Notes under the pieces: generated by a model
What the model was told of the DNA's origin: nothing
What the model saw: the letters and a program-made list of their open reading frames with translations, nothing else
The model's database searches: none
Position numbers and translations under genes: made by a program
From: Candidatus Omnitrophota bacterium
GTDB lineage: Bacteria; Omnitrophota; Gorgyraeia; JAZDFF01
Assembly (NCBI GenBank): GCA_043808095.1
Contig: JAZDFF010000005.1
Span: forward strand, 1 to 60,927
Direction of reading: 5' to 3'
DNA length: 60,927 bases
Shown here: positions 18,688-56,632 of the stretch, piece after piece
Layout of the letters: each line of letters begins with the position of its first letter
Numbering within the stretch: position 1 is the stretch's first letter

Positions 18688-19776
18688 TCAGAATTGTTTC
18701 AAGAATCTCAAATCATTCTCAAAAAACAATCTAATATCGTCTATTCCGTACTTAAGCATGGCGATGCGCTCTACGCCCATGCCAAAGGCAAACCCTGTAT
18801 ATTTATCCGTGCCGTATCCTACGGCCTTAAAGACATTGGGATGGACCATGCCGCTGCCTAAGATCTCAAGCCAACCCTTCTTGCCGCAGACAGAACAACC
18901 CTTGCCTTTACAGATATTGCAGGAGACGTCCACTTCAGCTGAGGGCTCGGTAAAAGGAAAGAAATGCGGACGAAATCTGACTTTAGCCTCCCGGCCGAAT
19001 ATCTCTTTGGCAAATATTTCCAAAACCCCCTTTAAATCCGAAAATTTTATGTCTTTGTCGACAAGCAGGCCTTCGATCTGGTGAAACATAAATAGGTGCG
19101 AGGCATCCACTGCATCCGGCCGATAAACCTTGCCCGGGACTATCACGGCAATAGGCGGCTTATTGGCTCTCATTACCCGAATCTGTGCAGGCGAGGTGTG
19201 GCTACGCAATAATAATCTTTCCGAAGACGCTATCTGTGCTAATCTGTGTTTTTTTCTTCTTGGATTAACACTGATATCTGTGCTAATCTGTGTTTCTAAA
19301 TAGAAGGTGTCAAAGACATCCCGGGAAGGATGTTCCAGGGGGATATTTAGGGCAGTAAAATTGTTGAATTCGGTTTCAATCTCTGGGCCTTCAACTACGC
19401 TAAATCCCATCTTGGTAAAAACTGCACAGATCTCTTCGACCGCCAAGGTTATGGGATGTTTATTGCCCAACACAGGACCAATCCCAGGCATACTAAGATC
19501 GAATGAATCCTGTTCACTGGCGGCCGATGAAAGGGTAATGAGTTCCTGGTTCTTTTTTTGGATTAAATCCGAAAGGAGGTTTTTTAGGTTATTAAGGCTG
19601 ACTCCTTGCCTGGGCCTATCCTCGGCTGATAAACCGGGCAGTTCGGCCATTGCCTGGGCAAGCAGTCCGTTTCTTCCCAGGTATTTTACCCTAAAGGCCT
19701 CTAAGGACTTGGGGTCCTTTACCTCTTGGATTTCGCTTTGCGCGTCAGATTCAAGCTTTGTAAGATCAAAAGGCAT
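18688..19776 (-). CDS. pheS: phenylalanyl-tRNA synthetase alpha subunit
   Basis: MPFDLTKLE... start (ATG 19776, AGGAG upstream) and class II motifs (HPSRD..FY, LLRSHTSPAQIR, GFAFGMGVERIAM). A repeat-derived segment lies at 19231-19295. Confidence 0.95.
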   Translation of the reverse strand: MPFDLTKLESDAQSEIQEVKDPKSLEAFRVKYLGRNGLLAQAMAELPGLSAEDRPRQGVSLNNLKNLLSDLIQKKNQELITLSSAASEQDSFDLSMPGIGPVLGNKHPITLAVEEICAVFTKMGFSVVEGPEIETEFNNFTALNIPLEHPSRDVFDTFYLETQISTDISVNPRRKKHRLAQIASSERLLLRSHTSPAQIRVMRANKPPIAVIVPGKVYRPDAVDASHLFMFHQIEGLLVDKDIKFSDLKGVLEIFAKEIFGREAKVRFRPHFFPFTEPSAEVDVSCNICKGKGCSVCGKKGWLEILGSGMVHPNVFKAVGYGTDKYTGFAFGMGVERIAMLKYGIDDIRLFFENDLRFLKQF

Positions 19777-20243
19777 ATTACTGCTCCTGATAAACAAACA
19801 GAAAATATCTTTTTTGCCAAAGGAACTTCCTGATGAATGCTTCCTCCGCCGGTAATTATCGATAGGGCCTGGGCGTGGATATCTAAATCTCCACCATGTA
19901 TTGGACAGGCGCGATGAAAGACGCCTTCTATCCGGACCCAATCCCCTTTTGTCTTATAACCACCAATATAATTTATATCCTTGGTTAAAACTGGCGGGCA
20001 AAATACGCCTAAAGCCGCTTTTGTATCATTTATACTAAGCCAGGCGCCATCGCTTCGTTTCATTATATCACCAACTACCTCTCCTTCATAGACCACGGTT
20101 TTCCCATCGTAGCGTTTTGCATTATTAATTAACTCAGCGCTTGAAAGCGGCTGGGCATAGACGAAAGTAGCAAGTCCCGAAAGTAGCATTATTATGAAGA
20201 GCGTCATCGGGATCCCGAAGTATAACTTCTTGAGTAGCTTCAT
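19719..20243 (-). CDS. hypothetical secreted/membrane-anchored protein (signal peptide plus C-terminal TM helix)
   Basis: MKLLKKLYFGIPMTLFIIMLLSGLATFVYA signal-like N-terminus and C-terminal IFSVCLSGAVICLLILQSL. The track ORF extends to 20489 only by reading through REP-like repeats. The start is uncertain (20243 or 20207, no clear SD). It overlaps pheS by 58 nt. Confidence 0.5.
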   Translation of the reverse strand: MKLLKKLYFGIPMTLFIIMLLSGLATFVYAQPLSSAELINNAKRYDGKTVVYEGEVVGDIMKRSDGAWLSINDTKAALGVFCPPVLTKDINYIGGYKTKGDWVRIEGVFHRACPIHGGDLDIHAQALSIITGGGSIHQEVPLAKKIFSVCLSGAVICLLILQSLNLTRKAKSKR

Positions 20244-20485
20244 TCGGGATAGCAAGTAGTGGTTCGACAGGCTCACCATCCCTCGAATACATTCGACTAT
20301 GCTCAGTATTCGTCCTGAGTTTATCGAAGGACGAACCATCCCGAGCGACCCATTCGACAAGCTCAGGGTCATCCTGAACAAGCGAAGCGCGTCGAAGGAC
20401 GATGTCGAGGGACAAGTAGCGAGTGCAAATATTATTTCTTTGCGCTTTTGCGGTGTTTTCTCATTTCTTTGCGCTTTTGCGGTTA
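20244..20485. repeat. tandem cluster of GC-rich REP-like units (FDKLR/VRPELVEG-type) plus CGCAAA words
   Basis: At least three units of the form ttcgac..gctcag..cctgag..tcgaagg (20260-20410), then ctttgcgcttttgcggt twice (20436-20480). All three frames translate to the junk peptides FDKLRV, IRPEFIEG and SLSNG. Confidence 0.85.
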
Positions 20486-21988
20486 TCATTTTCCTCTAAA
20501 ATATGCTACAAAAAATCCGATTAATGTAAATATGGATAAAAACTCAAGCCTGCCTGCCCACATCTGGAAGATATAGGTTATTTTTAAGGCTGTCGGCATT
20601 GAGGCCTGAGTAATCCCGCAAGATAGCCCCACATTTGCCGCCGCAGAAGTAGACTCAAACAGAGAATACAAAAAGGGGTATTTAAAAAACATACCTATAA
20701 TTGCACCCAGAAAATACAGCCCGATATATAAAAGCGTAACAATCGCTGCCGAGCGCACCTGCCTGTCGTCTAAAATCATCTGTTTGATGTGATGAAACCT
20801 TTGCACAAATACCGCTGACTCGGGCAGCATTATTTTTTTGGTGTCCTGGATGAGCGCCTTAAAAATAACCCCGATCCTTAAGGACTTGATGGCGCCGGTT
20901 GTCGAGCACATCCCGCCGCCTAATCCCATGGCAATGATGATGCCTACAAGCGCGAGGTTGCTCCATTCGCGGACAAATTGCATGGCATACAAAGTGCTGT
21001 GTCCGGTTCCGGTATGAGCGCTGATTAAATGATAAAAGCCTTTGCGGAAGAAGACAACCGGTTGGGTATAAGTATTGAGCTGTTTAAGGCCGAATACTAC
21101 TAATATATAAGTAAGGACTATTGTTATTGAGAATGTTACTATCTCGATGTTGCGCCAGATTTCCCGGCGGTTTCCCGTCCAGATGGCATAATGGAGCTTA
21201 AAATTCATGGCACCTAAAAACATTATGACTATGGTCACAATCTCAAAGGCGAGGCTGTGATAATAGGCGGTATTTTGGCTCTGAGGGGCAAATCCTCCGG
21301 TATCAAATGCCGCCATAAAGACACAGACCCCGTGAAATAAGGCCCTGGGAAAGGCCAGGCCTTCTAAGGTAGCAACGATTGCTAAAGCAAGCGAGCCCAA
21401 AATCATATACACAATACTCACCAGCCAGATGAATCTGGCGGTCTGAACAATATTCGGTAAGACTTTTTCATCTCTCGCCTCGCCTACATACATCCTGAAG
21501 GCTCCGGGCAGGCCCTTTACCAAAAAACTAAGGGCAATTACAATGATTCCCTGGCCGCCTAAAAACATTAAGAGATGGCGCCAGAGGTTATGGCTATTGG
21601 ATAGATGATCCAGATCCTGAACCAGGGTCAGGCCCGTAGTCGCAAATCCGCTCATCGCCTCAAAGACAGCATCAAGAAAACTGCCAAAATGATTGCTAAG
21701 GTAAAACGGAATTGCCCCAAGAATTGCCGCCACAAGCCAAGCCAAAGAAACAACCACCATCCCGTGGATCCATTTTAAATCTCTCTCGGTCCGGCAGAAA
21801 TAGGTAAGCCCTAAACCCACAAACATGGAAAATAAAAAGCTCAGGACAAAATCGAAGGCAGGGTTAAACTCTTGATAGATAAGGGCAAAGGCAAGCGGAA
21901 CCAGCGTAAAAATTCCCAGGCCGATAATAATCTTGCCTAAATAATATCCTATAATTTTTATGTCTTCTGCCCGGGGTCTTATAATCAT
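20486..21988 (-). CDS. trkH: TrkH-family K+ uptake membrane subunit
   Basis: 500-aa polytopic protein with repeated TTGG/TGTGHS-type selectivity-filter-like segments (GFATTGLT, AHTGTGHS). Adjacent to the trkA genes. Confidence 0.9.
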   Translation of the reverse strand: MIIRPRAEDIKIIGYYLGKIIIGLGIFTLVPLAFALIYQEFNPAFDFVLSFLFSMFVGLGLTYFCRTERDLKWIHGMVVVSLAWLVAAILGAIPFYLSNHFGSFLDAVFEAMSGFATTGLTLVQDLDHLSNSHNLWRHLLMFLGGQGIIVIALSFLVKGLPGAFRMYVGEARDEKVLPNIVQTARFIWLVSIVYMILGSLALAIVATLEGLAFPRALFHGVCVFMAAFDTGGFAPQSQNTAYYHSLAFEIVTIVIMFLGAMNFKLHYAIWTGNRREIWRNIEIVTFSITIVLTYILVVFGLKQLNTYTQPVVFFRKGFYHLISAHTGTGHSTLYAMQFVREWSNLALVGIIIAMGLGGGMCSTTGAIKSLRIGVIFKALIQDTKKIMLPESAVFVQRFHHIKQMILDDRQVRSAAIVTLLYIGLYFLGAIIGMFFKYPFLYSLFESTSAAANVGLSCGITQASMPTALKITYIFQMWAGRLEFLSIFTLIGFFVAYFRGK

Positions 21989-23789: not shown

Positions 23790-24137
23790 TTATCCTTTAG
23801 CGATCTCTACTAATTTATTAAAGGTGGCTATGTCGCCAACTGCCAGATCCGCTAACACCTTTCTGTCTAAATCAATTTTTGCCTTTTTCAGGCCCCGGAT
23901 AAACTGACTGTATTTAATCCCCGAAAGGCGACAGGCGTTGTTGATGCGGATAATCCAGAGCCTGCGGAAATCCCGCTTTCGGACTTTTCTGTCCCGGTAA
24001 TTATATTCGAGGGCGTGTCTTACAACATTGCGGGCAATACGAAAACGCCGGCTGCGTCCTCCCCATTGGCCCTTGGCCAGCTTCAGTATACGTTTCTTTT
24101 TTCTTCTTCGCGTAGGTCCTAATTTAACTTTTGCCAT
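23790..24137 (-). CDS. rplT: 50S ribosomal protein L20
   Basis: RRRKKKRILKLAKGQWGGRSRRFRIA..AYRDRK is typical of L20. Confidence 0.95.
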   Translation of the reverse strand: MAKVKLGPTRRRKKKRILKLAKGQWGGRSRRFRIARNVVRHALEYNYRDRKVRKRDFRRLWIIRINNACRLSGIKYSQFIRGLKKAKIDLDRKVLADLAVGDIATFNKLVEIAKG

Positions 24138-24144
24138 TGTTTAC

Positions 24145-24335
24145 TCCTTTTTTATCGCAAAAGCGCAAAATTTTAGTTTTTCAATATTACACCGCCTCCC
24201 GCTATAGCGGGATCCCGCCTCGTTGTAAAATGCAGAACGGGAAAAGCGCAAAAAATCTTTGCGTTCTTTGCGGTGTCTTTAATAGTTACCTACTTTTGCG
24301 TTTTTGCGGTTACTTTGGTTGTGTAAAAAATTGTA
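24145..24335. repeat. word-hairpin element, CGCAAA/TTTGCG family, between rpmI and rplT
   Basis: cgcaaaagcgcaaaatt...aaaagcgcaaaaaatctttgcgttctttgcgg...cttttgcgtttttgcgg. Central cccgctatagcgggatcccgcc motif. Confidence 0.8.
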
Positions 24336-28098: not shown

Positions 28099-28145
28099 CT
28101 AATACCTGCTCTCTACTCGCTACTCTCTACTTGCTACTTCAAACG

Positions 28146-31708: not shown

Positions 31709-31889
31709 ATCAATGCTCCTCTCAAAAAAATAAAGTCGTGATTCCAGGGATTTTTCCCCTGCCTTCACTTTTAACTACAGCGGGATCCCGCCAGAGCGGG
31801 AAAAATAGATTCCGGTGATTATTCCGCATCTTAATCACTGTAATCTTATCGAAAATCACCGTAATCAATAAATTTTTATTTTAATAAAA

Positions 31890-36362: not shown

Positions 36363-36409
36363 TCACTAGATGGCTACACGGTAAATATCGCCCGACCATA
36401 TTGTATTCC

Positions 36410-37750
36410 ATGTCAACAGCTGCTAATTCCGTCTGGGATAAAGCCCAGGGATACATTAAAGACAAGATCGGCTCAACTGCCTTTGAGACCTGGTTTGGTT
36501 CTATACAGGTCAAGGCTGGCTCAGCTACTCACCTTGTATTAGAGGTCCCGGATACATTCTTTAAAGACTGGGTACTAAACCATTATTACAATCTCATTCA
36601 GGAGGCGATTAATCAGGCCTCGGGTGGAAGTATGCAGCTGGAGATCAGCGTTAACCCCAAATTACTTCCCGAGAAAAATAAAGACCGCCTACAAGAATTT
36701 AAAACCAAGATCCAGGAGCCAGGCCAAGAAAGCATTCGCCTCAATCCCCGTTATAGTTTTGATAGTTTTGTAGTCGGCTCATCAAACCGCTTTGCACACG
36801 CCGCATCCCTGGCCGTGGCTGAGTCTCCGGCCAAGGCCTACAATCCCCTGTTTCTTTATGGAGGGGTTGGTTTGGGTAAGACCCACCTCATGCAAGCAAC
36901 TGCCCAGTATATTAACAGACAGCAGCCCCAACTGAAGATTTCTTATATTACTTCTGAACGCTTCACCAATGAGTTAATCGACGCCATCCAGCATCGTTCC
37001 ACCCAGCGTTTCCGTCTGAAATATAGAAATGTGGACGTGCTTTTAATCGATGACATCCACTTTATCGCCGGCAAAGAGTCTACTCAGGAAGAATTTTTCC
37101 ATACCTTTAATACCCTTTATGACGCCCACAAGCAGATCATCATTTCTTCGGACCGTTCGCCGAAGGAGATCAACAAATTAGAAGAACGGCTCATCTCGCG
37201 CTTTGCATGGGGTTTAATCGCGGATATGCAGCCGCCGAATTTAGAGACCCGGGTAGCCATATTAAAAAAGAAGGTGGAGAGGGAGCCGATAAAGGTGCCG
37301 GATGAGGTTATCTTTTTTATCGCCGAGGTGATTAAAAGCAATATCCGCGAATTGGAAGGCGCACTTATCCGGGTAGTAGCCTATTCCCTTTTAGAAGAGA
37401 GAGAGATCTCTCTGGGCATGGCTCAGGACGTCCTTAAAGACATGCTGCGGGAAACTAAAAAGATTATTACCGTAGATTTGATTCAAAAGGCGGTGGCGGA
37501 TTCTTTTGGCCTATCCACCCAAGACTTAAAAATTAACAAGAGAAATAAAAGTACGGTCTTGGCCAGACAAGTAGCCATGTATCTTGCCAGAGAGCTAACT
37601 TCTTTTTCGCTGTCAGAACTGGGCCAACATTTTGGGGGCAAGGACCACACCACCATTCTTTATTCGTGGGATAAGATAAAAAAGGCGCTTAATGAAGACG
37701 GCCAACTAAAAAATACGATTAATAAGCTTATTTTAGAATTAAAACAATAA
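36410..37750 (+). CDS. dnaA: chromosomal replication initiator DnaA
   Basis: AAA+ motifs GGVGLGKTHL and LLIDDIHF, and C-terminal domain IV (VLARQVAMYLARELT...GGKDHTTILYS). The start is ATG 36410, or TTG 36401 as in the track. Confidence 0.95.
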   Translation: MSTAANSVWDKAQGYIKDKIGSTAFETWFGSIQVKAGSATHLVLEVPDTFFKDWVLNHYYNLIQEAINQASGGSMQLEISVNPKLLPEKNKDRLQEFKTKIQEPGQESIRLNPRYSFDSFVVGSSNRFAHAASLAVAESPAKAYNPLFLYGGVGLGKTHLMQATAQYINRQQPQLKISYITSERFTNELIDAIQHRSTQRFRLKYRNVDVLLIDDIHFIAGKESTQEEFFHTFNTLYDAHKQIIISSDRSPKEINKLEERLISRFAWGLIADMQPPNLETRVAILKKKVEREPIKVPDEVIFFIAEVIKSNIRELEGALIRVVAYSLLEEREISLGMAQDVLKDMLRETKKIITVDLIQKAVADSFGLSTQDLKINKRNKSTVLARQVAMYLARELTSFSLSELGQHFGGKDHTTILYSWDKIKKALNEDGQLKNTINKLILELKQ

Positions 37751-37913
37751 TACTGCGTATATCGTATACACTGGTTACTCACAGATTTTTGTAGGCGGGT
37801 TTTGTTATTACCTATTGAAAGGAATATGATTATAACCCTGGTTCACAATACCCAGGGTGCTTATTACGATTACTGTTTTTATATTATAAAAAGAAATTAA
37901 TATTGGAGGGGGT

Positions 37914-39005
37914 ATGCGTGTAGAAATAAGTAAAGAGGATTTATTGAAAGGTATTCAAGTTATTCAAAATGTTATTAATCCAAGGAGTACGCTGCCTATT
38001 TTATCTAACATTCTTATGGAAACACAAAAAGAAAACAGTTTAAAGCTAATTAGTACGGATTTAGATATAGGTATAGCCACAATTTTACCAATTGAGGTTC
38101 AAGAGGCAGGTTCAATTACGGTTCCAGCAAAAAAATTTGCTGATATTATTAAGGAATTACCTGATGATATAGTAAATATCGCCGTAAAAAAGAATAACAT
38201 TGTGAATATCACATCAAGAACCTGTCAATTCAAGTTAATGGGTTTGCCTAAAGAAGAATTTCCTAAATTAGCCGACTTTCAAGATCAGCACCCCATTGAA
38301 CTAGAGCAGGGTGTGATTAAGGAAATGTTGGAGTTGGTGTACTTTGCCGCCTCTACAGATGAAACCAGATATGTCTTAAACGGGATCCTTATGGAGATCA
38401 AAGATAAGGTTTTAAAATTCGTGGCTACGGATGGCCGCAGGCTGGCGATTGTAAAAAGGAATTTAGCCACAGTTTTCCCAAAAGATACCAGCGTGATTAT
38501 TCCTGTAAAGACAGCCCAGGAGTTGAATCGCAATTTGGGTGAAGAAGGCTTACTGCAATTTTTTCTCGGCGAAAATCAGGTGTTGTTTAAGATGGGCGCA
38601 ACCTCGATTACGTCTCGGCTTATTGAAGGCGAATTCCCAGATTATAATTCAGTAATACCGCAGCCCGTTGACAATAAGGTAAAATTAAACCGCCAAGGGT
38701 TTTTATTGGCTTTAAGACGGGCCAGCCTCCTAAGCACCCTTGATTATCAGGCGGTGAAGCTCGAACTGTTTAAAAACAAAATGGTCATCTCAAAGTCTAC
38801 GCCGGATCTAGGCGAGTCCCGTGAAGAGCTCGATGTGGAATACGCCGGTAAAGAATTAATCATCGGTTTTAATCCTTATTATATTATGGACGTCTTAAAA
38901 AGTCTGGCCTCTGAGATAGTGGCGTTTGAGATAACTGATAGCGATAAGCCCGGGGCGATTCGCAGCCAGGACTATATTTATATAGTCCTGCCCATGCGTA
39001 TTTAA
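37914..39005 (+). CDS. dnaN: DNA polymerase III beta sliding clamp
   Basis: 363 aa with a three-domain clamp pattern (LPILSNILME..., ATDGRRLA). GGAGGGGG SD. Confidence 0.95.
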   Translation: MRVEISKEDLLKGIQVIQNVINPRSTLPILSNILMETQKENSLKLISTDLDIGIATILPIEVQEAGSITVPAKKFADIIKELPDDIVNIAVKKNNIVNITSRTCQFKLMGLPKEEFPKLADFQDQHPIELEQGVIKEMLELVYFAASTDETRYVLNGILMEIKDKVLKFVATDGRRLAIVKRNLATVFPKDTSVIIPVKTAQELNRNLGEEGLLQFFLGENQVLFKMGATSITSRLIEGEFPDYNSVIPQPVDNKVKLNRQGFLLALRRASLLSTLDYQAVKLELFKNKMVISKSTPDLGESREELDVEYAGKELIIGFNPYYIMDVLKSLASEIVAFEITDSDKPGAIRSQDYIYIVLPMRI

Positions 39006-39209
39006 TACGCGAATACACGCTAACCCAACGCGAATATTCGCTAATTTTAGGTAATGGTTAGGGTAATGAAGCCGGTATGGTCTAAAGGTTAAGGTAGATA
39101 TAAAATACTTAACCCTAACCCAATTTTCCATACAGGCATCTTGACCTTAACCCAAAGATTTAACCATAGGCTTAGGGAATTATTTCTTATTTTTACTATT
39201 CGCGTTTAT

Positions 39210-39491
39210 ATGGAGAGATTGAAGGTTACCCTAGACAAGGTAATGCGGCAGCTGGCTAAAAAAACCCAGTCTAAAAACCGGCCAGCCTATTATTGGGAAA
39301 AGGCAGTAGACAAAAAAACCCTAAAACATACCAAGGTCGCCGGCCTAAAAGACAAGAATCTTATTATTAATGTAGACAATGCCTCTTGGCTTTACGAATT
39401 GAGCACGCAAAAAAACCAGATAACGAAAAAACTGCTTGACCTTTCAGGCAGAAGCATTAATAATGTTAAATTCAGATTAGGGGAGATCTAA
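39210..39491 (+). CDS. DUF721 (DciA-like) protein
   Basis: W..AV......HT.V..LKD.NLIINVDNASWLYELS....I..KL matches the DUF721 pattern. It sits in the conserved position between dnaN and gyrB. Start trimmed to ATG 39210. Confidence 0.65.
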   Translation: MERLKVTLDKVMRQLAKKTQSKNRPAYYWEKAVDKKTLKHTKVAGLKDKNLIINVDNASWLYELSTQKNQITKKLLDLSGRSINNVKFRLGEI

Positions 39492-39496
39492 AAAAC

Positions 39497-39598
39497 TACT
39501 GGCGTTACCGCTAAAACGCAAAGATTTTTCACTGCTGTTTTTTTGCGGCTTTGCGACCATCTGGTAGATGGGCAGGCGTTTTGCGCCTTTGCGGTGTC
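39497..39598. repeat. word-hairpin element, CGCAAA/TTTGCG family
   Basis: ccgctaaaacgcaaag...ttttgcggctttgcg...gttttgcgcctttgcgg. Confidence 0.7.
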
Positions 39599-39640
39599 GA
39601 GAAAAGTTTTTAAGAAATTCCATTAGGAGAGGTAAAATAA

Positions 39641-42112
<2,472 letters not shown>

Positions 42113-42115
42113 TAA

Positions 42116-42234
42116 AATGCAAACATCAAAAATCAAATATCAAATATCAAAATGACATAGCAAAATTTAAATATTTTAAATAATTTTGCATTTTGGACTT
42201 TAAATTTTGATTTTTGCATTTTGATTTTTGAATT
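42116..42234. repeat. word-hairpin element, CAAAAT/ATTTTG family (copy 1)
   Basis: Left arm aatgcaaacatcaaaaatcaaatatcaaatatcaaaatgacatagcaaaat, right arm attttgcattttggactttaaattttgatttttgcattttgatttttgaattt. Fills the gyrB-gyrA spacer. Confidence 0.85.
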
Positions 42235-42258
42235 TACGACGAACGAAGTGAGGAGGAC

Positions 42259-44685
42259 ATGTACACCCAAGGAGAAAAAATAGTTCCGGTTTATATTGAA
42301 GAGGAGATGAAGAATTCCTACATCTCCTATGCCATGAGCGTTATCGTAGGCAGGGCCCTGCCTGATGTGCGAGACGGCTTAAAGCCCGTGCACCGCAGGA
42401 TTCTTTTTACCATGCACGAATTAAACCTGCGTCACACACAAGCCTATAAAAAATCCGCCAGGATCGTCGGAGATTGTCTGGGTAAATACCATCCGCACGG
42501 AGATATGGCGGTTTATGATACTCTTGTGCGCATGGTCCAGGATTTTAGCCTACGTTATCCTTTGATCGAGGGCCAGGGCAACTTCGGCTCGGTTGACGGC
42601 GACGCCCCAGCAGCAATGAGATATACCGAGGCACGCCTGGCAGCCATTTCCGACGAGATGCTCGAGGACATTGATAAGGATACGGTAGGCTTTATGCCCA
42701 ATTTTGATAACTCCCTGAAAGAGCCCGTGCTTTTACCGGCGCGCCTGCCCAATCTAATTATTAACGGCTCAAGCGGTATTGCCGTGGGTATGGCCACAAA
42801 TATACCCCCGCATAATCTCACCGAGGTGGTTGACGGCGTTACTTACCTAATCGAGAATCCCGACGCCGAAGGCAAAGACCTGATGCGTTATATCAAGGGC
42901 CCGGATTTCCCGACGGGCGCAACTATCTGCGGACGGGGCGGGATCAAAGACGCCTATGCAACCGGCAGGGGAAAATTAGTCGTGCGGGCAAAGGCTTCTA
43001 TCGAACAACAAAAACAGGGCAAGGAATCCATCATCATTACCGAGATCCCTTATCAGGTAAATAAAAGCAGCCTGATTTCCTCGATAGCCGAGTTAGTGGA
43101 AGAGAAAAAGGTCGAAGGAATAAGCGATATCCGCGATGAATCCGATAAAGAAGGCATGCGCATTGTCGTGGATCTTCGCCGGGACGCCGAGCCGCAATTA
43201 ATCCTGAACCAGCTTTATAAACACACTCAGTTAGAAACGAGTTTTGGCATTATTATGCTTGCCCTCGTAGATAACCGGCCCAGGGTTCTTAATATAAAAC
43301 AAATCCTCCATTACTATATCGAGCATCGTAAAGACATTGTCAGGCGCCGGACCCAGTTTGAATTAGATAAGGCGCAAAAACGGGCGCATATCTTAGAAGG
43401 CCTTAAGATCGCCTTAAAATTTATCGACAAGATTATTAAGACCATAAAAACCTCTAAAAATACGCCCGCGGCCAAAGAGGCCCTGATGAAGAATTTTGAT
43501 TTATCCGACGCACAGGCCCAGGCGATTTTAGAGATGCAGTTACAGAGGCTTACCGCCCTTGAGCGCGACAAACTTGAGGCCGAATACCTGGACTTAATCA
43601 AAAAGATAGAGTTTTATAAATCCATCCTGGCCTCGGAGAAAAAAATTGAGGGCGTAATTAAGGACGAGCTCGCCGAGATAAAAAAGCGCTTTGGCGACGA
43701 ACGCCGAACTCAGATTGTGGGAGAGGTGGAAGAATTAGAGATCGAGGATTTCATCGCCGAAGAAGATGTGGTGGTCACCATAAGCCATTCCGGCTACATC
43801 AAGAGGCTCCCCGTTTCGAGTTATCACAAGCAAGGACGCGGAGGACAAGGCGTCACCGGCGCAGAATTGAAAGAAGATGATTTTGTCGAGCATCTGTTTG
43901 TGGCCTCCACCCACGATTTCATCCTGTTTTTTACGGATAAGGGCCGGGTACATTGGCAGAAGGTTCATGAGATCCCCGTGGGAAGTCGCACGGCTAAAGG
44001 CAAGGCCATCATTAATATGCTGCAAATCAGCCAGAATGAGAAGATCAGTTCTTATATGCCGGTCAAGGAATTTAAGCCGGATAATTATCTGGTGATGGTT
44101 ACGAAAAAAGGCCTGATTAAAAAGACTTCACTCGAGGCCTATGGCCACCCGCGTAAAGGCGGTATCGTCGGCATTACCTTAGAGTCCCAGGATGAATTAC
44201 GGGAAGTCAAGCTTACCGACGGCAAACAAGAGCTTTTCATCGCTACTAAAGAAGGCAAGGCCATCAGATTTGCGGAAAAACAGGTCCGGGATATGGGCAG
44301 ATCCGCCAAGGGAGTTAAGGGAGTGCGCTTGTCTAAGAACGATGAGGTGATTGCCGCAGAGGTAGTGGATAAAGATGCAACGGTATTAACAGTCACAGAA
44401 AACGGTTTTGCCAAGCGTACCACTTTTAAGGAATATCGCCTGCAGAGCCGCGGCGGCAAAGGTATTATCAATATTAAGGTAACCAAGAAAAACGGTGCGG
44501 CAGTCGGGCTCAAGTCTGTTTTAGAAACCGACGACATTATGGCGGTTACTCATAACGGCATGATTGTGCGCTGCGCAGTGAAGGATATCCGTGCTACCGG
44601 ACGATCGTCTCAGGGCGTGAGGTTAATTAAACTGCAGCCAAAAGACGTGGTCGCAACCATTGCCAGCGTAGCGAAAGAAGAGTAA
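42259..44685 (+). CDS. gyrA: DNA gyrase subunit A
   Basis: YAMSVIVGRALPDVRDGLKPVHRR, the AAMRYTE active-site Tyr context, and a C-terminal beta-pinwheel. Confidence 0.95.
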   Translation: MYTQGEKIVPVYIEEEMKNSYISYAMSVIVGRALPDVRDGLKPVHRRILFTMHELNLRHTQAYKKSARIVGDCLGKYHPHGDMAVYDTLVRMVQDFSLRYPLIEGQGNFGSVDGDAPAAMRYTEARLAAISDEMLEDIDKDTVGFMPNFDNSLKEPVLLPARLPNLIINGSSGIAVGMATNIPPHNLTEVVDGVTYLIENPDAEGKDLMRYIKGPDFPTGATICGRGGIKDAYATGRGKLVVRAKASIEQQKQGKESIIITEIPYQVNKSSLISSIAELVEEKKVEGISDIRDESDKEGMRIVVDLRRDAEPQLILNQLYKHTQLETSFGIIMLALVDNRPRVLNIKQILHYYIEHRKDIVRRRTQFELDKAQKRAHILEGLKIALKFIDKIIKTIKTSKNTPAAKEALMKNFDLSDAQAQAILEMQLQRLTALERDKLEAEYLDLIKKIEFYKSILASEKKIEGVIKDELAEIKKRFGDERRTQIVGEVEELEIEDFIAEEDVVVTISHSGYIKRLPVSSYHKQGRGGQGVTGAELKEDDFVEHLFVASTHDFILFFTDKGRVHWQKVHEIPVGSRTAKGKAIINMLQISQNEKISSYMPVKEFKPDNYLVMVTKKGLIKKTSLEAYGHPRKGGIVGITLESQDELREVKLTDGKQELFIATKEGKAIRFAEKQVRDMGRSAKGVKGVRLSKNDEVIAAEVVDKDATVLTVTENGFAKRTTFKEYRLQSRGGKGIINIKVTKKNGAAVGLKSVLETDDIMAVTHNGMIVRCAVKDIRATGRSSQGVRLIKLQPKDVVATIASVAKEE

Positions 44686-44712
44686 ATTAAAGATATAGAT
44701 AAGATACGGGTT

Positions 44713-44829
44713 AATATCCAATAACCAATTTCCAATAAATACCAATAAAATCCCAATGACCAATTTTCCAATTGGAGATTGGATAATTGGACATTAATTG
44801 GGATTTGGTGATTGGTGAATTGGAAATTA
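44713..44829. repeat. word-hairpin element, CCAAT/ATTGG family
   Basis: aatatccaataaccaatttccaataaataccaataaaatcccaatgaccaattttccaatt | ggagattggataattggacattaattgggatttggtgattggtgaattggaaatt. Confidence 0.85.
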
Positions 44830-44856
44830 AAGTTTTACTTTTAAGTTAAACATCCT

Positions 44857-44960
44857 GACCCCATCGTCTAGCCTGGTTAGGACAAGAGCTTTTTCCCGCC
44901 GAGCCAAAGGCGAGGCGGGATCCCGACCTCGCTTTCAGCTCGGTCGGGACAAGCTCTCGA
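44857..44960 (+). pseudogene. disrupted partial copy of tRNA-Glu (nt 1-48) with a 56-nt double-hairpin insert in the anticodon loop
   Basis: 44857-44893 is identical to tRNA-Glu nt 1-37 (45206-45242). 44950-44960 (caagctctcga) equals 45243-45253. The insert at 44894-44949 forms CCCGCC..GGCGGG and TCCCGACC..GGTCGGGA hairpins. The T-arm and 3' acceptor strand are absent. Confidence 0.75.
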
Positions 44961-44965
44961 GGACT

Positions 44966-45220
44966 ATGTATTATGTTTATGTGTTAGAAAACAATAAAGG
45001 GAGACATTATATTGGCAGTTGTGTAAATGTAGAAGAAAGGCTGAAACGACACAACCAAAATAGCGTCAGATCCACCAAGAATAAAGGGCCTTTTACAATA
45101 GCGTATCAAAAAGAATTCAGCACTAGAAGAGAAGCGAGAATTAGAGAGAACCAAATCAAGCGCTACAAAAATAGCGGCTATTTGAGAAGGTTAATAAATA
45201 GACAGGACCCCATCGTCTAG
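44966..45220 (+). CDS. small stand-alone GIY-YIG nuclease-domain protein (84 aa)
   Basis: YYVYVLENNKGRHYIGSCVNVEERLKRHN...REARIRENQIK shows the GIY..YIG..R..H..E..N pattern. The TAG stop (45218-45220) lies in the D-arm of the intact tRNA-Glu. Confidence 0.8.
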   Translation: MYYVYVLENNKGRHYIGSCVNVEERLKRHNQNSVRSTKNKGPFTIAYQKEFSTRREARIRENQIKRYKNSGYLRRLINRQDPIV

Positions 45221-45279
45221 CCTGGTTAGGACAAGAGCTTTTCAAGCTCTCGACACCGGTTCAAATCCGGTTGGGGTCG
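45206..45279 (+). tRNA. tRNA-Glu (anticodon UUC)
   Basis: Acceptor GACCCCA/UGGGGUC, anticodon arm AGAGC-UUUUCAA-GCUCU, T-arm ACCGG-UUCAAAU-CCGGU, discriminator G. No CCA encoded. Confidence 0.9.
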
Positions 45280-45367
45280 TTAAATTTTGCTTTGCAAAAT
45301 TTAACCCCGAGCGAAGCGAGGGGCTGCTTTTTAGAGTAGCGAGTAGAGAGAAGAGAGTAGCAAGAAA

Positions 45368-45422
45368 CTATCCGCCTACGTCAAAGTGTTTTCACCTTTG
45401 ACTTCGGCGAGACTTCACTAAA
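45368..45422. repeat. word element in the glmS leader (CACCTTTGACTTC family)
   Basis: See 36200-36362. It is preceded by gagtagcgagtagagag (45334-45350), which is the exact reverse complement of 28109-28125. Confidence 0.8.
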
Positions 45423-45441
45423 TTAAAAATTAAAGTGCTCA

Positions 45442-47271
45442 ATGTGTGGCATTGTCGGATATATAGGTAATAAAGACGCAAAAGATATATTAATCGAAGG
45501 CCTGAGCCGCCTTGAGTACCGCGGATACGACTCGGCGGGTATTGCCGTATTAAATAAAGGCAAAATCTACTGCCAGAAAACCTCCGGTAAGATAAAAGAA
45601 CTAATCAAGAATTTAGAAAAACACCCCCTGCCCGAAAGCACCCTGGGTATTTCACATACCCGCTGGGCAACTCACGGCGCGGCCACCGATATTAATGCCC
45701 ACCCCCACCTTGATTGTAAAAAAGAATTTGCCATCGTCCATAACGGGATCATCGAAAATTATCAGGAATTAAAGACGCGATTAATAAAAAAAGGCCACAA
45801 ATTTCATTCCTCTACCGATACCGAGGTAATCGTTCATCTCATCGAAAGTCTTTATCAGGGAGATTTAGAAGAGGCCTTCCGTAAGGCAATTAACCAGTTA
45901 AGAGGGAGCTTTGCCCTGGGCTTGATATCGAAAGATGAGCCGGATAAGCTTTTTGCGGCCCGCAGGTTCAGTCCCCTGATTATCGGCCTGGGCAAGGATG
46001 AGAATTTTATCGCCTCGGATGCCCCGGCGATCTTAAATCACACAAGAAAAGTAATCTATCTCGGCGATGACGAGATGGCAATTTTAGAAAAAGGGGTGGT
46101 CCGGGTAAAAGATCTAAAAGGCAAGAGCATCGAGAAAAAAGTTAATACCATAAAATGGGATATCAAAGAGGCCGAGAAACAGGGATTTGCCCACTTCATG
46201 TTAAAAGAGATCCATGAGCAACCCAAGGTCAGCCGCCAGATAATCTCAACCCATATTGATAAGGACGACAGAGTCTATTTTCAGGAATTCCGCATTAACC
46301 AGGCTTTTTTAAAGGAGATACGGCAGATTATTATACTTGCTTGCGGCACTGCCTATCATGCTGGTCTGGTAGCTAAATATGTGATTGAAAAATTAACGGA
46401 CATACCTGTATGGGTAGATTTTTCAAGCGAATTCCGTTACCGGGGCCTTTCCCTGAAAAAGAATACTTTAGTCATTGCCATCAGCCAGTCGGGTGAGACT
46501 GCCGATACCCTGGCAGCAGTAAAAGAGGCCCAATCCAAAGGCGCGTATATTCTGGCTATTTGTAATGTGGTAGGGTCATCTTTAGCGAGAGAATCAAATA
46601 GCGTCATCTATACCCATGCCGGACCTGAAATCGGCGTGGCCTCCACCAAGGCCTATACTGCCCAGATCTTGATATTGGACCTTTTGGCTATTTATTTAGC
46701 CGACTTACGAGGAGGGCTGGCTAAAAACCAAAAAAGTTTTTTGATATCAGAGCTAAAAAGGATCTCTCATCTACAAGAACTAATTCTGAAAAAAGAATCC
46801 GATATCGCTACAATTGCTCACCGCCATTCTCACTTTGGCTGTTTTCTTTATCTGGGCAGGAATGTGAATTTCCCGTCGGCACTGGAAGGGGCATTAAAGT
46901 TAAAAGAGATTTCTTATATTCCTGCTGAAGGCTATGCGGCCGGTGAGATGAAACACGGGCCCATTGCTCTAATTGATGAATACCGGGCAGTTGTTTGTAT
47001 AGCGACAGAATCCGATATCTATGATAAAATGGTATCCAATATTCAGGAGATCCGCTCTCGCCAGGGTAAGGTAGTTGCTATTGCCACCGAAGAGGATGCC
47101 AGCATTAAATTATATGTGCGGGAGGTTATTTACATCCCCAGAATTACAGATTTGTTATCGCCGGGTTTAGTGGCCCTGCCTTTACAGCTCTTGGCCTATC
47201 ATATTGCCACAAAACGCGGCTGTGATGTGGACCAGCCGAGGAATTTAGCTAAAAGCGTAACGGTTGAATAG
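45442..47271 (+). CDS. glmS: glutamine--fructose-6-phosphate aminotransferase
   Basis: MCGIVGYIG N-terminal nucleophile, two SIS domains, C-terminal ...KSVTVE. Confidence 0.95.
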   Translation: MCGIVGYIGNKDAKDILIEGLSRLEYRGYDSAGIAVLNKGKIYCQKTSGKIKELIKNLEKHPLPESTLGISHTRWATHGAATDINAHPHLDCKKEFAIVHNGIIENYQELKTRLIKKGHKFHSSTDTEVIVHLIESLYQGDLEEAFRKAINQLRGSFALGLISKDEPDKLFAARRFSPLIIGLGKDENFIASDAPAILNHTRKVIYLGDDEMAILEKGVVRVKDLKGKSIEKKVNTIKWDIKEAEKQGFAHFMLKEIHEQPKVSRQIISTHIDKDDRVYFQEFRINQAFLKEIRQIIILACGTAYHAGLVAKYVIEKLTDIPVWVDFSSEFRYRGLSLKKNTLVIAISQSGETADTLAAVKEAQSKGAYILAICNVVGSSLARESNSVIYTHAGPEIGVASTKAYTAQILILDLLAIYLADLRGGLAKNQKSFLISELKRISHLQELILKKESDIATIAHRHSHFGCFLYLGRNVNFPSALEGALKLKEISYIPAEGYAAGEMKHGPIALIDEYRAVVCIATESDIYDKMVSNIQEIRSRQGKVVAIATEEDASIKLYVREVIYIPRITDLLSPGLVALPLQLLAYHIATKRGCDVDQPRNLAKSVTVE

Positions 47272-52731: not shown

Positions 52732-52815
52732 GAAGATGATTATCCCGAATGATGTTATTCTTTGTAGTATCTCTTCGGGATCCCGTTTTTAATTTAATTG
52801 TTGGGCGGGAAAAGA

Positions 52816-55673: not shown

Positions 55674-56621
55674 ATGATCTGGACGCGTAAAGACTTATTA
55701 GGCCTGGAAGATTTAACTAAAGAAGAGATTCAGTTTATCCTTGATACCACTGATTCCTTTAAAGAGGTTTCAACGCGCGAGATTAAAAAGGTCCCGGCCT
55801 TACGCGGCAAGACCGTAGTGAATTTATTTTATGAACCCTCCACGCGCACCCGGGTCTCTTTTGAGGTGGCGGCAAAGAGATTATCCGCCGACGTGATTAA
55901 TATTATGGCTGAGTCTTCGAGTGTGGCAAAGGGCGAGACCTTAATCGATACCGGAAGAAACATCCAGTTCTTGAAGGCAGACATCATTGTCATAAGGCAT
56001 AGTTTTTCCGGGGCGCCCATTCTACTTTCTAAGCACGTCGATATCAGCGTGGTTAATGCCGGAGACGGCCGGCATGAACATCCCACCCAGGCGCTTCTGG
56101 ATATCTTTACCCTCAAAGAGAAATTGGGCAGAATCGAAGGCCTCAATGTCAGTATTGTCGGAGATATTGCGCATTCGCGTGTTGCCCGTTCCAATATCTG
56201 GGGACTGACCAAGCTAGGTGCGCAGGTTACGGTCTGCGCGCCCCAAATACTTATTCCGCCTGCTATTGAACAACTGGGTGTGCGCGTCACCCACGATATA
56301 GACGATGCCCTTCACAATGCCGATGCCGTAAACGTCCTGCGCATGCAGTTTGAGCGCGATGAAAGCGATGCCTTCCCGAAACAACTGGAATATTTTAAGA
56401 ACTTCGGCATTACCAAAGAAAGGTTAAAGAAGGCCAAGAAAAATATTCTGGTTATGCACCCCGGCCCTTTAAATCGTGGTATTGAAATATCCTCTGACGT
56501 AGCTGACGGAGGAAATTCCGTGATTTTAGAGCAGGTTACAAACGGAATCGCAGTGAGGATGGCAGTCTTGTTCTTAGTAACTCAAGCACAGGATAAGAAA
56601 AGAGTAGAGAGTAGCGAGTAG
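55674..56621 (+). CDS. pyrB: aspartate carbamoyltransferase catalytic subunit
   Basis: FYEPSTRTRVSFE, HPTQALLD, HPGPLNRG. The last codons and the TAG stop lie in a GAGTAGCGAGTAG word repeat (56609-56621). Confidence 0.95.
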   Translation: MIWTRKDLLGLEDLTKEEIQFILDTTDSFKEVSTREIKKVPALRGKTVVNLFYEPSTRTRVSFEVAAKRLSADVINIMAESSSVAKGETLIDTGRNIQFLKADIIVIRHSFSGAPILLSKHVDISVVNAGDGRHEHPTQALLDIFTLKEKLGRIEGLNVSIVGDIAHSRVARSNIWGLTKLGAQVTVCAPQILIPPAIEQLGVRVTHDIDDALHNADAVNVLRMQFERDESDAFPKQLEYFKNFGITKERLKKAKKNILVMHPGPLNRGIEISSDVADGGNSVILEQVTNGIAVRMAVLFLVTQAQDKKRVESSE

Positions 56622-56632
56622 CAATAATGAGA

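Follow-up and report, generated by a model that had tools for sequence, protein, structure and literature searches.

Why does a broken copy of a tRNA gene stand just ahead of the intact gene, with a small nuclease gene between the two? The question is raised by the tRNA-Glu(UUC) locus of a Candidatus Omnitrophota bacterium (contig JAZDFF010000005.1), in a stretch of 60,927 nucleotides (nt) that is called the window here. Between the 5′ fragment and the intact gene lies an 84-residue GIY-YIG open reading frame (ORF), the stop codon of which falls inside the tRNA gene. Comparison with related loci makes us highly confident that the ORF belongs to a mobile insertion cassette at tRNA-Glu. We think it probable that the ORF is the nuclease gene of a selfish, homing-endonuclease-like cassette, one that spreads by break repair with tRNA sequence serving as its homology arms.

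A preliminary description of this locus, made from the sequence alone, had laid out the fragment, the insert, the ORF and the tRNA. All of its coordinates hold when checked with ARAGORN, Rfam, blastn and reading of the sequence, and both ARAGORN and Rfam find the intact tRNA-Glu(UUC) where it had been placed (see the table below). The fragment is an exact copy of tRNA nt 1–37 (44857–44893 against 45206–45242, 37/37 identical, blastn E = 2.7e-15). It is followed by a GC-rich insert of 56 nt, 44894–44949, termed X below. As the description held, X sits in the anticodon loop; its insertion point is between the second and third anticodon bases, the placement is unambiguous, and there is no target duplication. 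After X the tRNA sequence resumes for nt 38–48, and 5 nt (GGACT) separate this short piece from the ATG at 44966. The final five codons of the ORF, GAC CCC ATC GTC TAG, are tRNA-Glu nt 1–15. This 15-nt overlap puts the stop codon in the D-arm, again as first described. The cassette is some 300–350 bp long and consists of X, about 11 nt of tRNA (nt 38–48), the ORF, and tRNA-Glu sequence from nt 1 onwards. The resident 5′ half (nt 1–37) stays at its ancestral position, capped by X, and the tRNA sequence adjoining the ORF restores one intact gene.

The ancestral arrangement is seen in relatives. Metagenome contigs were scanned with a 29-nt sequence of the intact anticodon arm, a probe that samples tRNA-Glu loci irrespective of the ORF (L numbers denote the loci or contigs compared, P numbers database proteins). 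The matches listed include 80 loci, nearly all with gyrA to the left and glmS to the right of tRNA-Glu; 9 were too short to be judged and 71 were assessable. Among these 71 listed loci the search for empty sites in relatives yielded 45 clean ones, against 18 with the ORF and 8 with scars or remnants only. In the empty sites read as examples, tRNA-Glu starts 1–12 nt past the gyrA stop codon. The displaced fragment lies 3–5 nt past that stop where it was read, which is the position of the tRNA in empty sites. Host pairs were compared by the C-terminal half of GyrA, extracted with query-anchored tblastn, and occupancy was found to differ between hosts with 94–99% identity in this segment (L003/L079, L081/L094, L060/L066 and L077/L032). 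The cassette is thus an insertion present in some close relatives and absent from others. Together with the displaced fragment, which no ORF-bearing locus lacks (38/38), the orthologous empty sites uphold the original proposal that a cassette displaced the old 5′ part of the gene and regenerated the tRNA.

Blastn segment maps of empty against occupied loci define the point of insertion. On the left, the flank of the empty site and its tRNA from nt 1 to nt 13, 30 or 39 line up with the outermost left part of the occupied locus. On the right, the match picks up again past the intact tRNA or past a displaced 3′ copy, and the alignment of empty and occupied flanks stops exactly at the hairpin element. 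Of the 38 occupied loci, 37 have X or another hairpin module at the junction and L009 has just a degraded one; the 45 clean empty loci have none. Elsewhere on the related contigs X is rare, at about 0.09 per 10 kb. This density is equally low on ORF-bearing and ORF-free contigs, which supports neither the presence nor the absence of an ORF-dependent abundance. In several loci the intact tRNA is followed by a second partial copy of the form [nt ~20–38]-X-[nt 39–75]. In L003 and L086 the X of the downstream copy is identical to the upstream X, so X was in place by the time the structure formed. In L043 the tRNA piece between the hairpin and the ATG bears a T-stem allele foreign to the host; therefore the short piece ahead of the ATG travels with the ORF. 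The breaks in flank alignment, the identical downstream X and the L043 allele all place the junction at the hairpin element, and not at the variable loop, where the preliminary description had put it.

The architecture of X was derived from 59 distinct related inserts. It comprises two hairpins with 7-bp stems, that is, TCCCGnn..nnCGGGA twice in succession. Stem positions 1–5 are fixed (TCCCG/CGGGA), the loops vary freely, and positions 6 and 7 co-vary (CG, AT, TA, GC), with pairing in 36–41 of 38–41 cases among 41 copies. The two GC hairpins first reported for the window are hence a conserved design across the set, although the minimum-energy fold of X in the window is a single long hairpin. 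The displaced fragment together with X folds at −55.9 kcal/mol, z = −5.4. Insertion sites of X are known in three tRNA loops: the anticodon loop, as here, the D-loop (between nt 13 and 14), and the T-loop (GGTTC/RAATCC). At all three the insertion is exact and without target duplication. Fragments in L002, L004, L011 and L014 carry a second X in the D-loop. The class 2 cassettes (L040, L043, L047, L061 and L077) have a distinct ORF clade and a different junction, in which the whole anticodon arm is replaced by one hairpin, CCCCGCC-nnnn-GGCGGGG. X shares with elements of the IS200/IS605 type or the repetitive extragenic palindrome (REP) type the hairpins at both ends and the insertion without target duplication; no transposase was found among the 16 window ORFs scanned.

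What does the ORF encode? It matches the Pfam GIY-YIG family PF01541 over residues 1–71 (E = 6.3e-15). A profile of 33 homologues, searched against PDB, finds the UPF0213 proteins 1zg2 (E = 3.7e-15) and 1ywl, then Slx1. The AlphaFold model (predicted local distance difference test score, pLDDT, 87.7) has the order strand-strand-helix-strand-helix-helix, with a three-stranded sheet and flanking helices, and the top Foldseek matches of the model are again 1zg2, 1ywl and Slx1. Residues Y5, Y15, G17, R25, H29 and E61 are invariant among the 33 homologues; from what is known of I-TevI and UvrC we take them to be the catalytic residues. By sequence, then, the ORF is a member of the GIY-YIG superfamily, UPF0213 subgroup, and the fold claimed for it in the preliminary description is recovered by family search, structural profile, model and model comparison alike. 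The ORF is under purifying selection: the ratio of nonsynonymous to synonymous substitution rates (dN/dS) is 0.19–0.23 in unsaturated pairs of homologues, and in all pairs the proportion of nonsynonymous differences (pN) is far below that of synonymous ones (pS). Its GC content (0.375 at 45000–45199) lies below the 0.45–0.53 of gyrA.

The association with the tRNA is constant. In all 19 species-level ORF-bearing genomes, among them the complete genome of Ca. Velamenicoccus archaeovorus, tRNA-Glu(UUC) begins about 240 nt after the ATG. The 33 homologues, which are mostly from Candidatus Omnitrophota bins, end in ..DPIV or ..PSSSL[VA], and these ends are the 5′ end of tRNA-Glu translated in two frames. 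The position of the stop codon varies. Of 38 loci, 22 have it at tRNA nt 23–25, 9 at nt 13–15, and 5 at 0–5 nt ahead of the tRNA, while in 2 the ORF has no stop before the end of the tRNA. A putative mutual exclusion of RNase P maturation of the tRNA and expression of the nuclease was put forward for this overlap in the preliminary description; the stop lies within or past the tRNA in 33 of the 38 loci. The C-terminal tail is disordered in the predicted model. Given this tail and the variable stop, the overlap follows from the ORF abutting tRNA nt 1, and it looks like a by-product and no conserved device. In L005 and L061 the tRNA D-loop is devoid of TAG (GGTCCAGG in place of GGTCTAGG), and the ORF runs through or past the whole tRNA, gaining 25–45 residues. 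Many public gene models of the family (e.g., P0008, P0014, P0024, P0154 and P0155) have N-terminal extensions of 20–55 residues or are two-copy fusions, probably produced by gene callers reading across upstream tRNA fragments and hairpins or across tandem cassettes. The exact protein of the window ORF has no database record. A viral origin was considered and dropped: six relatives in IMG/VR are just 37–44% identical with no tRNA nearby, and a phage database yielded three weak, unannotated matches.

The histories of the ORF and its hosts differ. ORF identity does not correlate with GyrA identity (Spearman 0.10). Hosts 85–87% identical in GyrA have ORFs just 40–49% identical, and hosts 65–67% identical in GyrA have ORFs 75–77% identical. 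The cassette has spread horizontally, the ORF phylogeny being incongruent with that of host GyrA. In L061 and L077 the two displaced tRNA halves share an allele (GTCCCCA..TGGGGAC) that differs from that of the intact tRNA they enclose (GACCCCG..CGGGGTC); thus the incoming DNA carried a whole tRNA gene. In L009, L010, L051 and L059, too, the acceptor-stem allele of the fragment differs from that of the intact tRNA. Turnover is also seen. L086 is a tandem in which the older, upstream ORF is disrupted by a stop and a different, intact ORF lies downstream. In L019 one ORF copy is cut short at its 5′ end and the other has a frameshift; most of the ORF is gone from L041 and L067, where the fragment and the hairpin persist; and six loci show downstream scars only. 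The cassettes, that is, move between lineages, stack in tandem, decay, and get deleted, leaving hairpin-bearing scars. The orthologous cassettes of L017 and L018 are about 85% identical in DNA, and in each the fragment shares its own genome's tRNA substitution at nt 28, which points to gene conversion with the intact gene or to selection for identity and speaks against mere decay of the fragment.

The same design occurs at other tRNA genes. At tRNA-Cys(GCA), P0033 (contig L146) is arranged in the same way, with double hairpins of different stems in the D-region and the anticodon loop. Relatives of the class 2 ORF are present in bins of candidate phyla radiation (CPR) bacteria and of Bacteroidota. 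In the Cytophagales contig L147 and in contig L152 the ORF comes after an intact tRNA-Pro(CGG) and has its stop within a second tRNA-Pro copy, the D-arm of which is replaced by a CCCCGCC hairpin. A 359-nt unit of spacer, ORF and hairpin-substituted tRNA copy recurs in tandem at least three times in L152 (1021–1880). In L147 the tandem array lies at 1150–1815, and hairpin-bearing tRNA pieces without an ORF make up a further 61-nt array. The hairpin-substituted tRNA-Pro copies pass ARAGORN and Rfam, at 45 bits as against 63–65 for the intact gene. In the Nomurabacteria contigs L148 and L149 the ORF overlaps tRNA-Ser(GGA) and is preceded by tRNA nt 1–6, a double hairpin, and nt 7–11. L150, a CPR contig with tRNA-Pro(GGG), was too decayed to be classified. 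The cassette design is thus found in at least three bacterial phyla: Omnitrophota, CPR bacteria and Bacteroidota. The family numbers 4,080 clusters at 50% identity (E ≤ 1e-10), and by a heuristic, 42 of 134 parsable top representatives (~30%) end in peptides resembling translated tRNA 5′ ends.

How might such a cassette move? Judging by its sequence, the GIY-YIG enzyme would be the obvious candidate for making a break, and we lean towards the view that it drives the cassette by break-repair homing. The predicted nuclease would cut an uninterrupted tRNA-Glu gene in or near a loop, the anticodon loop in the case of the window's class. A cassette-bearing copy would then serve as the template for repair, the flanking tRNA sequences providing the homology arms. 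Both broken ends would invade a donor carrying [partial 5′ half]-X-[partial 3′ half], and the gap would be filled from the donor. Repair with crossing over would leave X on both sides, with everything between integrated and both resident halves displaced. Five loci (L003, L013, L016, L061 and L077) have both halves displaced and X-capped around the ORF and the new tRNA, in the order [old 5′ half]-X-[short 3′ piece]-ORF-[intact tRNA]-spacer-[short 5′ piece]-X-[old 3′ half]. Loss of the downstream copy through recombination of the repeated 3′ parts could then yield the one-sided form seen in the window. The same process acting on the repeated 5′ parts would bring back a clean empty site; acting on inner repeats, it would remove an older ORF and leave X on its own, which would account for the fragments with two X elements.

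The displaced tRNA copies are interrupted by hairpin modules, and the regenerated tRNA has the sequence of the empty-site tRNA. Where X splits or replaces the two halves of a tRNA arm, the dead copies would no longer be targets. The arms of a tRNA are inverted repeats, and we speculate that a small dimeric nuclease reads both halves of a stem and cuts between them. Such cutting would explain why the junctions lie in loops, and an inserted or substituted hairpin would abolish the site.

Several points weigh against this proposal. The metagenome counts rest on the matches listed for one exact tRNA 29-mer. Cleavage of tRNA-Glu is a prediction from sequence, and a bare catalytic domain of 84 residues, with no DNA-binding domain, does not account for recognition of the target. 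The regenerated tRNA is identical to the presumed target, the anticodon arm being the same in empty and occupied loci, so self-immunity is unaccounted for. The ORF clade matches the junction type cleanly in class 2 only, classes 1 and 3 being intermixed, and hairpin-bearing tRNA fragments of the T-loop type occur without any ORF. Given four extra intergenic copies of X in the window, the hairpin element may move independently of the ORF. Some of the allele patterns may likewise be due to gene conversion rather than transfer. A variant in which the hairpin and the tRNA fragments form a targeting device deserves mention, long shot as it is. The GC stems, whether extruded from the DNA as hairpins or present in an RNA made from the fragment, would recruit the nuclease, and the tRNA-derived sequence would guide it to uninterrupted tRNA genes. 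If true, this would be a nucleic-acid-guided GIY-YIG homing system and the first function for UPF0213.

Other explanations have to be set against break-repair homing. The variable-loop insertion of the preliminary description would amount to a linear cassette, the ORF plus tRNA nt 1–48, inserted after nt 48, the hairpin being an unrelated later insert in a dead fragment. The similarity to tRNA in the window does end 5 nt ahead of the ATG, having resumed for 11 nt past the insert; X-like elements elsewhere in the window make a secondary insertion possible, and the D-loops with a second X show the same. We nevertheless consider this improbable, since a later, unrelated insert is hard to square with a hairpin module at all junctions but one of 38, at none of the 45 clean empty loci, and otherwise at the background rate of ~0.09 per 10 kb on those contigs, nor does it fit the identical X in the downstream partner copies of L003 and L086 or the foreign allele in the post-hairpin piece of L043. 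Alternatively the hairpin may come first. Here the double hairpin is the primary miniature mobile element, inserting into hairpin loops and inactivating spare tRNA copies, and the GIY-YIG protein is either a structure-specific nuclease by which hairpins are processed or mobilised or a passenger. Precise entry of X into three different tRNA loops without target duplication would suit such an element, as would the ORF-less hairpin-bearing fragments and arrays, the dispersed intergenic copies in the window (5 exact cores, 0.045 expected), and the fact that the closest solved relatives after UPF0213 are the structure-specific Slx1 nucleases. Mitochondrial double-hairpin elements also lack flanking duplications, according to PMC2800124, which cites Paquin 2000. 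Yet the density of X outside tRNA-Glu is the same, and very low, on contigs with and without the ORF, and the ORF is tied to tRNA rather than to X in general, the window's sole GIY-YIG gene being the one at tRNA-Glu. A hydrolytic GIY-YIG enzyme, moreover, is to our knowledge incapable of strand transfer by itself. We regard the hairpin-first reading as unlikely.

Vertical descent can be argued from the purifying selection on the ORF, from its constant place beside a housekeeping gene cluster near dnaA, and from the concerted evolution of fragment and tRNA. The ORF would then have a host function, e.g., in DNA repair or at the tRNA locus, the arrangement would be ancient and repeatedly lost, and the tRNA duplications would stem from replication slippage. 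Such a history is very doubtful in view of the incongruence of ORF and GyrA phylogenies, the different ORF clades with different junctions at the same site of close hosts, the mixed tRNA alleles inside one locus, the recurrence of the design at other tRNA species in other phyla, and an ORF GC content below that of its neighbours. An integrase acting in trans, with the cassette as a miniature integrative element, is the explanation we would least expect to prove right. tRNA genes are classical integration sites, and the partial duplication of the tRNA does resemble att sites. Against this, no integrase is present within about 8 kb, and the gene tables inspected for the loci show none; what is duplicated is the 5′ end of the tRNA, to a varying extent (nt 13, 28 or 38); and the junction bears a hairpin insert and no simple core repeat.

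Some identities were rejected outright. In a search for a group I intron or other ribozyme, Rfam returned only tRNA at E ≤ 10 on 44600–45500 and at the gathering score on 8 related loci. An archaeal-type, bulge-helix-bulge intron is excluded because the X-bearing copy has no T-arm and no 3′ acceptor strand, and the fold gives an asymmetric internal loop of 2 nt and 1 nt, not two 3-nt bulges with a 4-bp helix. As for an integrase-type element, no tyrosine or serine recombinase gene lies in or next to the cassette, which has room for the 84-residue ORF only, and the repeat is the 5′ part of the tRNA (nt 1–37), interrupted by X, with no direct repeat of the 3′ end. The lack of an integrase noted in the preliminary description thus extends to about 8 kb around tRNA-Glu, where no integrase or recombinase gene was found.

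By analogy, the nearest characterised case would be phage T4 SegB, a free-standing homing endonuclease in a phage tRNA cluster. SegB is larger, has a DNA-binding region, and acts between co-infecting phages. The cassette protein differs in being a bare 84-residue catalytic domain in a bacterial chromosome, and the cassette differs in splitting its target tRNA gene, in supplying replacement tRNA sequence, and in having a conserved hairpin at the junction. The likeness is that of a GIY-YIG gene outside introns and among tRNA genes; SegB spreads by cleaving genomes that do not carry it, with co-conversion of flanking DNA of the tRNA region (PMC2330249). The cassettes show the presence/absence polymorphism, the horizontal spread and the cycle of invasion, degeneration and loss that characterise free-standing homing endonucleases.

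Regeneration of the invaded gene has a parallel in a fungus. Paquin, Laforest and Lang reportedly described, in 1994, a mobile endonuclease ORF in the mitochondrial atp6 gene of Allomyces macrogynus that brought a foreign gene end and displaced the original one. The nuclease of that element would be of a different family from that of the GIY-YIG cassette. In both cases a selfish ORF enters an essential gene with a replacement segment, and the displaced original is kept as a fragment. Allomyces mitochondrial DNA also has double-hairpin elements, which two papers citing Paquin 2000 (PMC2800124, PMC3787672) describe as short, GC-rich and mobile, with two stem-loops and no flanking duplication. 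Our case concerns a bacterial chromosome instead of an organelle and a tRNA instead of a protein gene, and the hairpin elements are likened by description. Islands, phages and archaeal plasmids that integrate into tRNA genes by means of tyrosine integrases (e.g., the Caldiarchaeum tRNA-Thr model, PMC3293823) likewise regenerate the tRNA and leave a partial copy at the other end. The cassette differs from these in having no integrase, in regenerating the 5′ part rather than the 3′ end, in its size of ~0.3 kb rather than many kb, and in its hairpin junction. Group I introns with homing endonuclease genes in the anticodon loops of bacterial tRNAs (PMC3984707) share the target, and there too the host gene stays functional; in the cassette, function is kept by duplication of the tRNA at the DNA level rather than by RNA splicing, and Rfam finds no ribozyme.

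The UPF0213 (COG2827) proteins 1zg2 and 1ywl, and Slx1, are kin of the ORF in sequence and fold, and a tRNA-cassette context is part of no description of them that we found. No account of UPF0213 genes as tRNA-gene cassettes was found in the full-text literature searched, which does not disprove that one exists elsewhere, and this literature offered no biological role for UPF0213. The cassette is apparently an undescribed variant of homing-type selfish elements. If this is correct, the concrete role of UPF0213 would be to supply the nuclease for miniature selfish cassettes inside tRNA genes. The cassettes would also represent a third route to harmlessness, beside intron splicing and recombinases, in which the element brings a replacement piece of its target gene and uses the break repair of the host. 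They would explain tRNA pseudo-fragments, tandem tRNA-like arrays and many mis-called protein ends. Should tRNA arms be what the enzyme recognises, a sequence- or structure-specific nuclease of unusually small size would be at hand as a possible tool.

The features of the window are collected in the table.

Table 1. Positions of the cassette components, neighbouring genes and X-like elements in the window.
Feature	Position	Strand	Basis or remark
Intact, regenerated tRNA-Glu(UUC)	45206–45279	+	ARAGORN; Rfam 62.2 bits
Displaced tRNA-Glu 5′ fragment (nt 1–37), remnant of the resident gene	44857–44893	+	blastn
X element, hairpin 1 (TCCCGCC..GGCGGGA)	44894–44920	+	7-bp stem
X element, hairpin 2 (TCCCGAC..GTCGGGA)	44921–44949	+	
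tRNA-Glu nt 38–48, short cassette piece (CAAGCTCTCGA)	44950–44960	+	
84-residue GIY-YIG (UPF0213-type) ORF	44966–45220	+	Stop TAG 45218–45220, in the tRNA D-arm
gyrA, conserved left neighbour	42259–44685	+	Pfam DNA_topoisoIV, DNA_gyraseA_C; synteny
glmS, conserved right neighbour	45442–47271	+	Pfam GATase, SIS domains; synteny
GC hairpin (CCCCGAGCGAAGCGAGGGG) then T-run, possible tRNA terminator (low confidence)	45305–45332	+	Read from sequence
Dispersed X-like double hairpin, intergenic, pheS/trkH	20175–20249		
Dispersed X-like double hairpin, gap adjoining rplT (23790–24137, minus)	24197–24242		
Dispersed X-like double hairpin, intergenic, adjoining a yicC-like gene	31755–31801		
Dispersed X-like double hairpin, intergenic	52743–52810		

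The tRNA-Glu locus lies within the origin gene cluster (36401–47271), with dnaA, dnaN, dciA, gyrB and gyrA upstream of the tRNA and glmS, a glucosamine-6-phosphate isomerase family protein and CofD downstream. At the possible terminator, a terminator scan marked the minus-strand version only. A 14-nt tRNA-like match within gyrA (44226–44239) is due to chance (E = 0.14).

Exact CGGGATCCCG cores number 5 in the window, where 0.045 would be expected, and X seems to have spread within the window's lineage. The copy at 20175 has TAGCAAG on both sides. A 256-residue ORF at 19719–20489 (minus strand) overlaps pheS, has no Pfam match, contains X, and is most likely no gene.

The T-loop insertions form units of their own kind. 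ORF-less units stand after tRNA-Glu in L011 (3312–3537) and in L002, L018, L007, L008, L082 and L088, and consist of a spacer, tRNA nt ~51–57, the T-loop insert and the tRNA 3′ end. They are partly tandem, with a period of 113 nt in L011, and in several of them the second hairpin is of a different, longer type (TTAATTCGC...GCTCATTAA). Such units are also present in the ORF-free loci L033, L066, L071 and L087.

The spacer between gyrA and tRNA-Glu holds other small elements. In the window, an AT-rich imperfect palindrome at 44713–44830 (CCAAT repeats, then ATTGG repeats) takes up most of the 171 nt that separate the gyrA stop from the displaced fragment. The same gap is just a few nt long in the related loci read, and the palindrome has the look of a small insertion of its own; its Rfam matches, to microRNA hairpins only, were spurious. 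In L063 and L093 a different small ORF lies between gyrA and tRNA-Glu, flanked by tagttcatagtt-type repeats. From its translation we take it to be a four-helix-bundle protein of the kind encoded in 23S rRNA intervening sequences. The gyrA–tRNA-Glu spacer seems to be a hot spot for small insertions. Downstream of tRNA-Glu, a short AGAGTAGCGAGTAGAG-like repeat at 45333–45350 recurs at 28109–28126 (minus strand), next to tRNA-Leu, and at 56602–56624.

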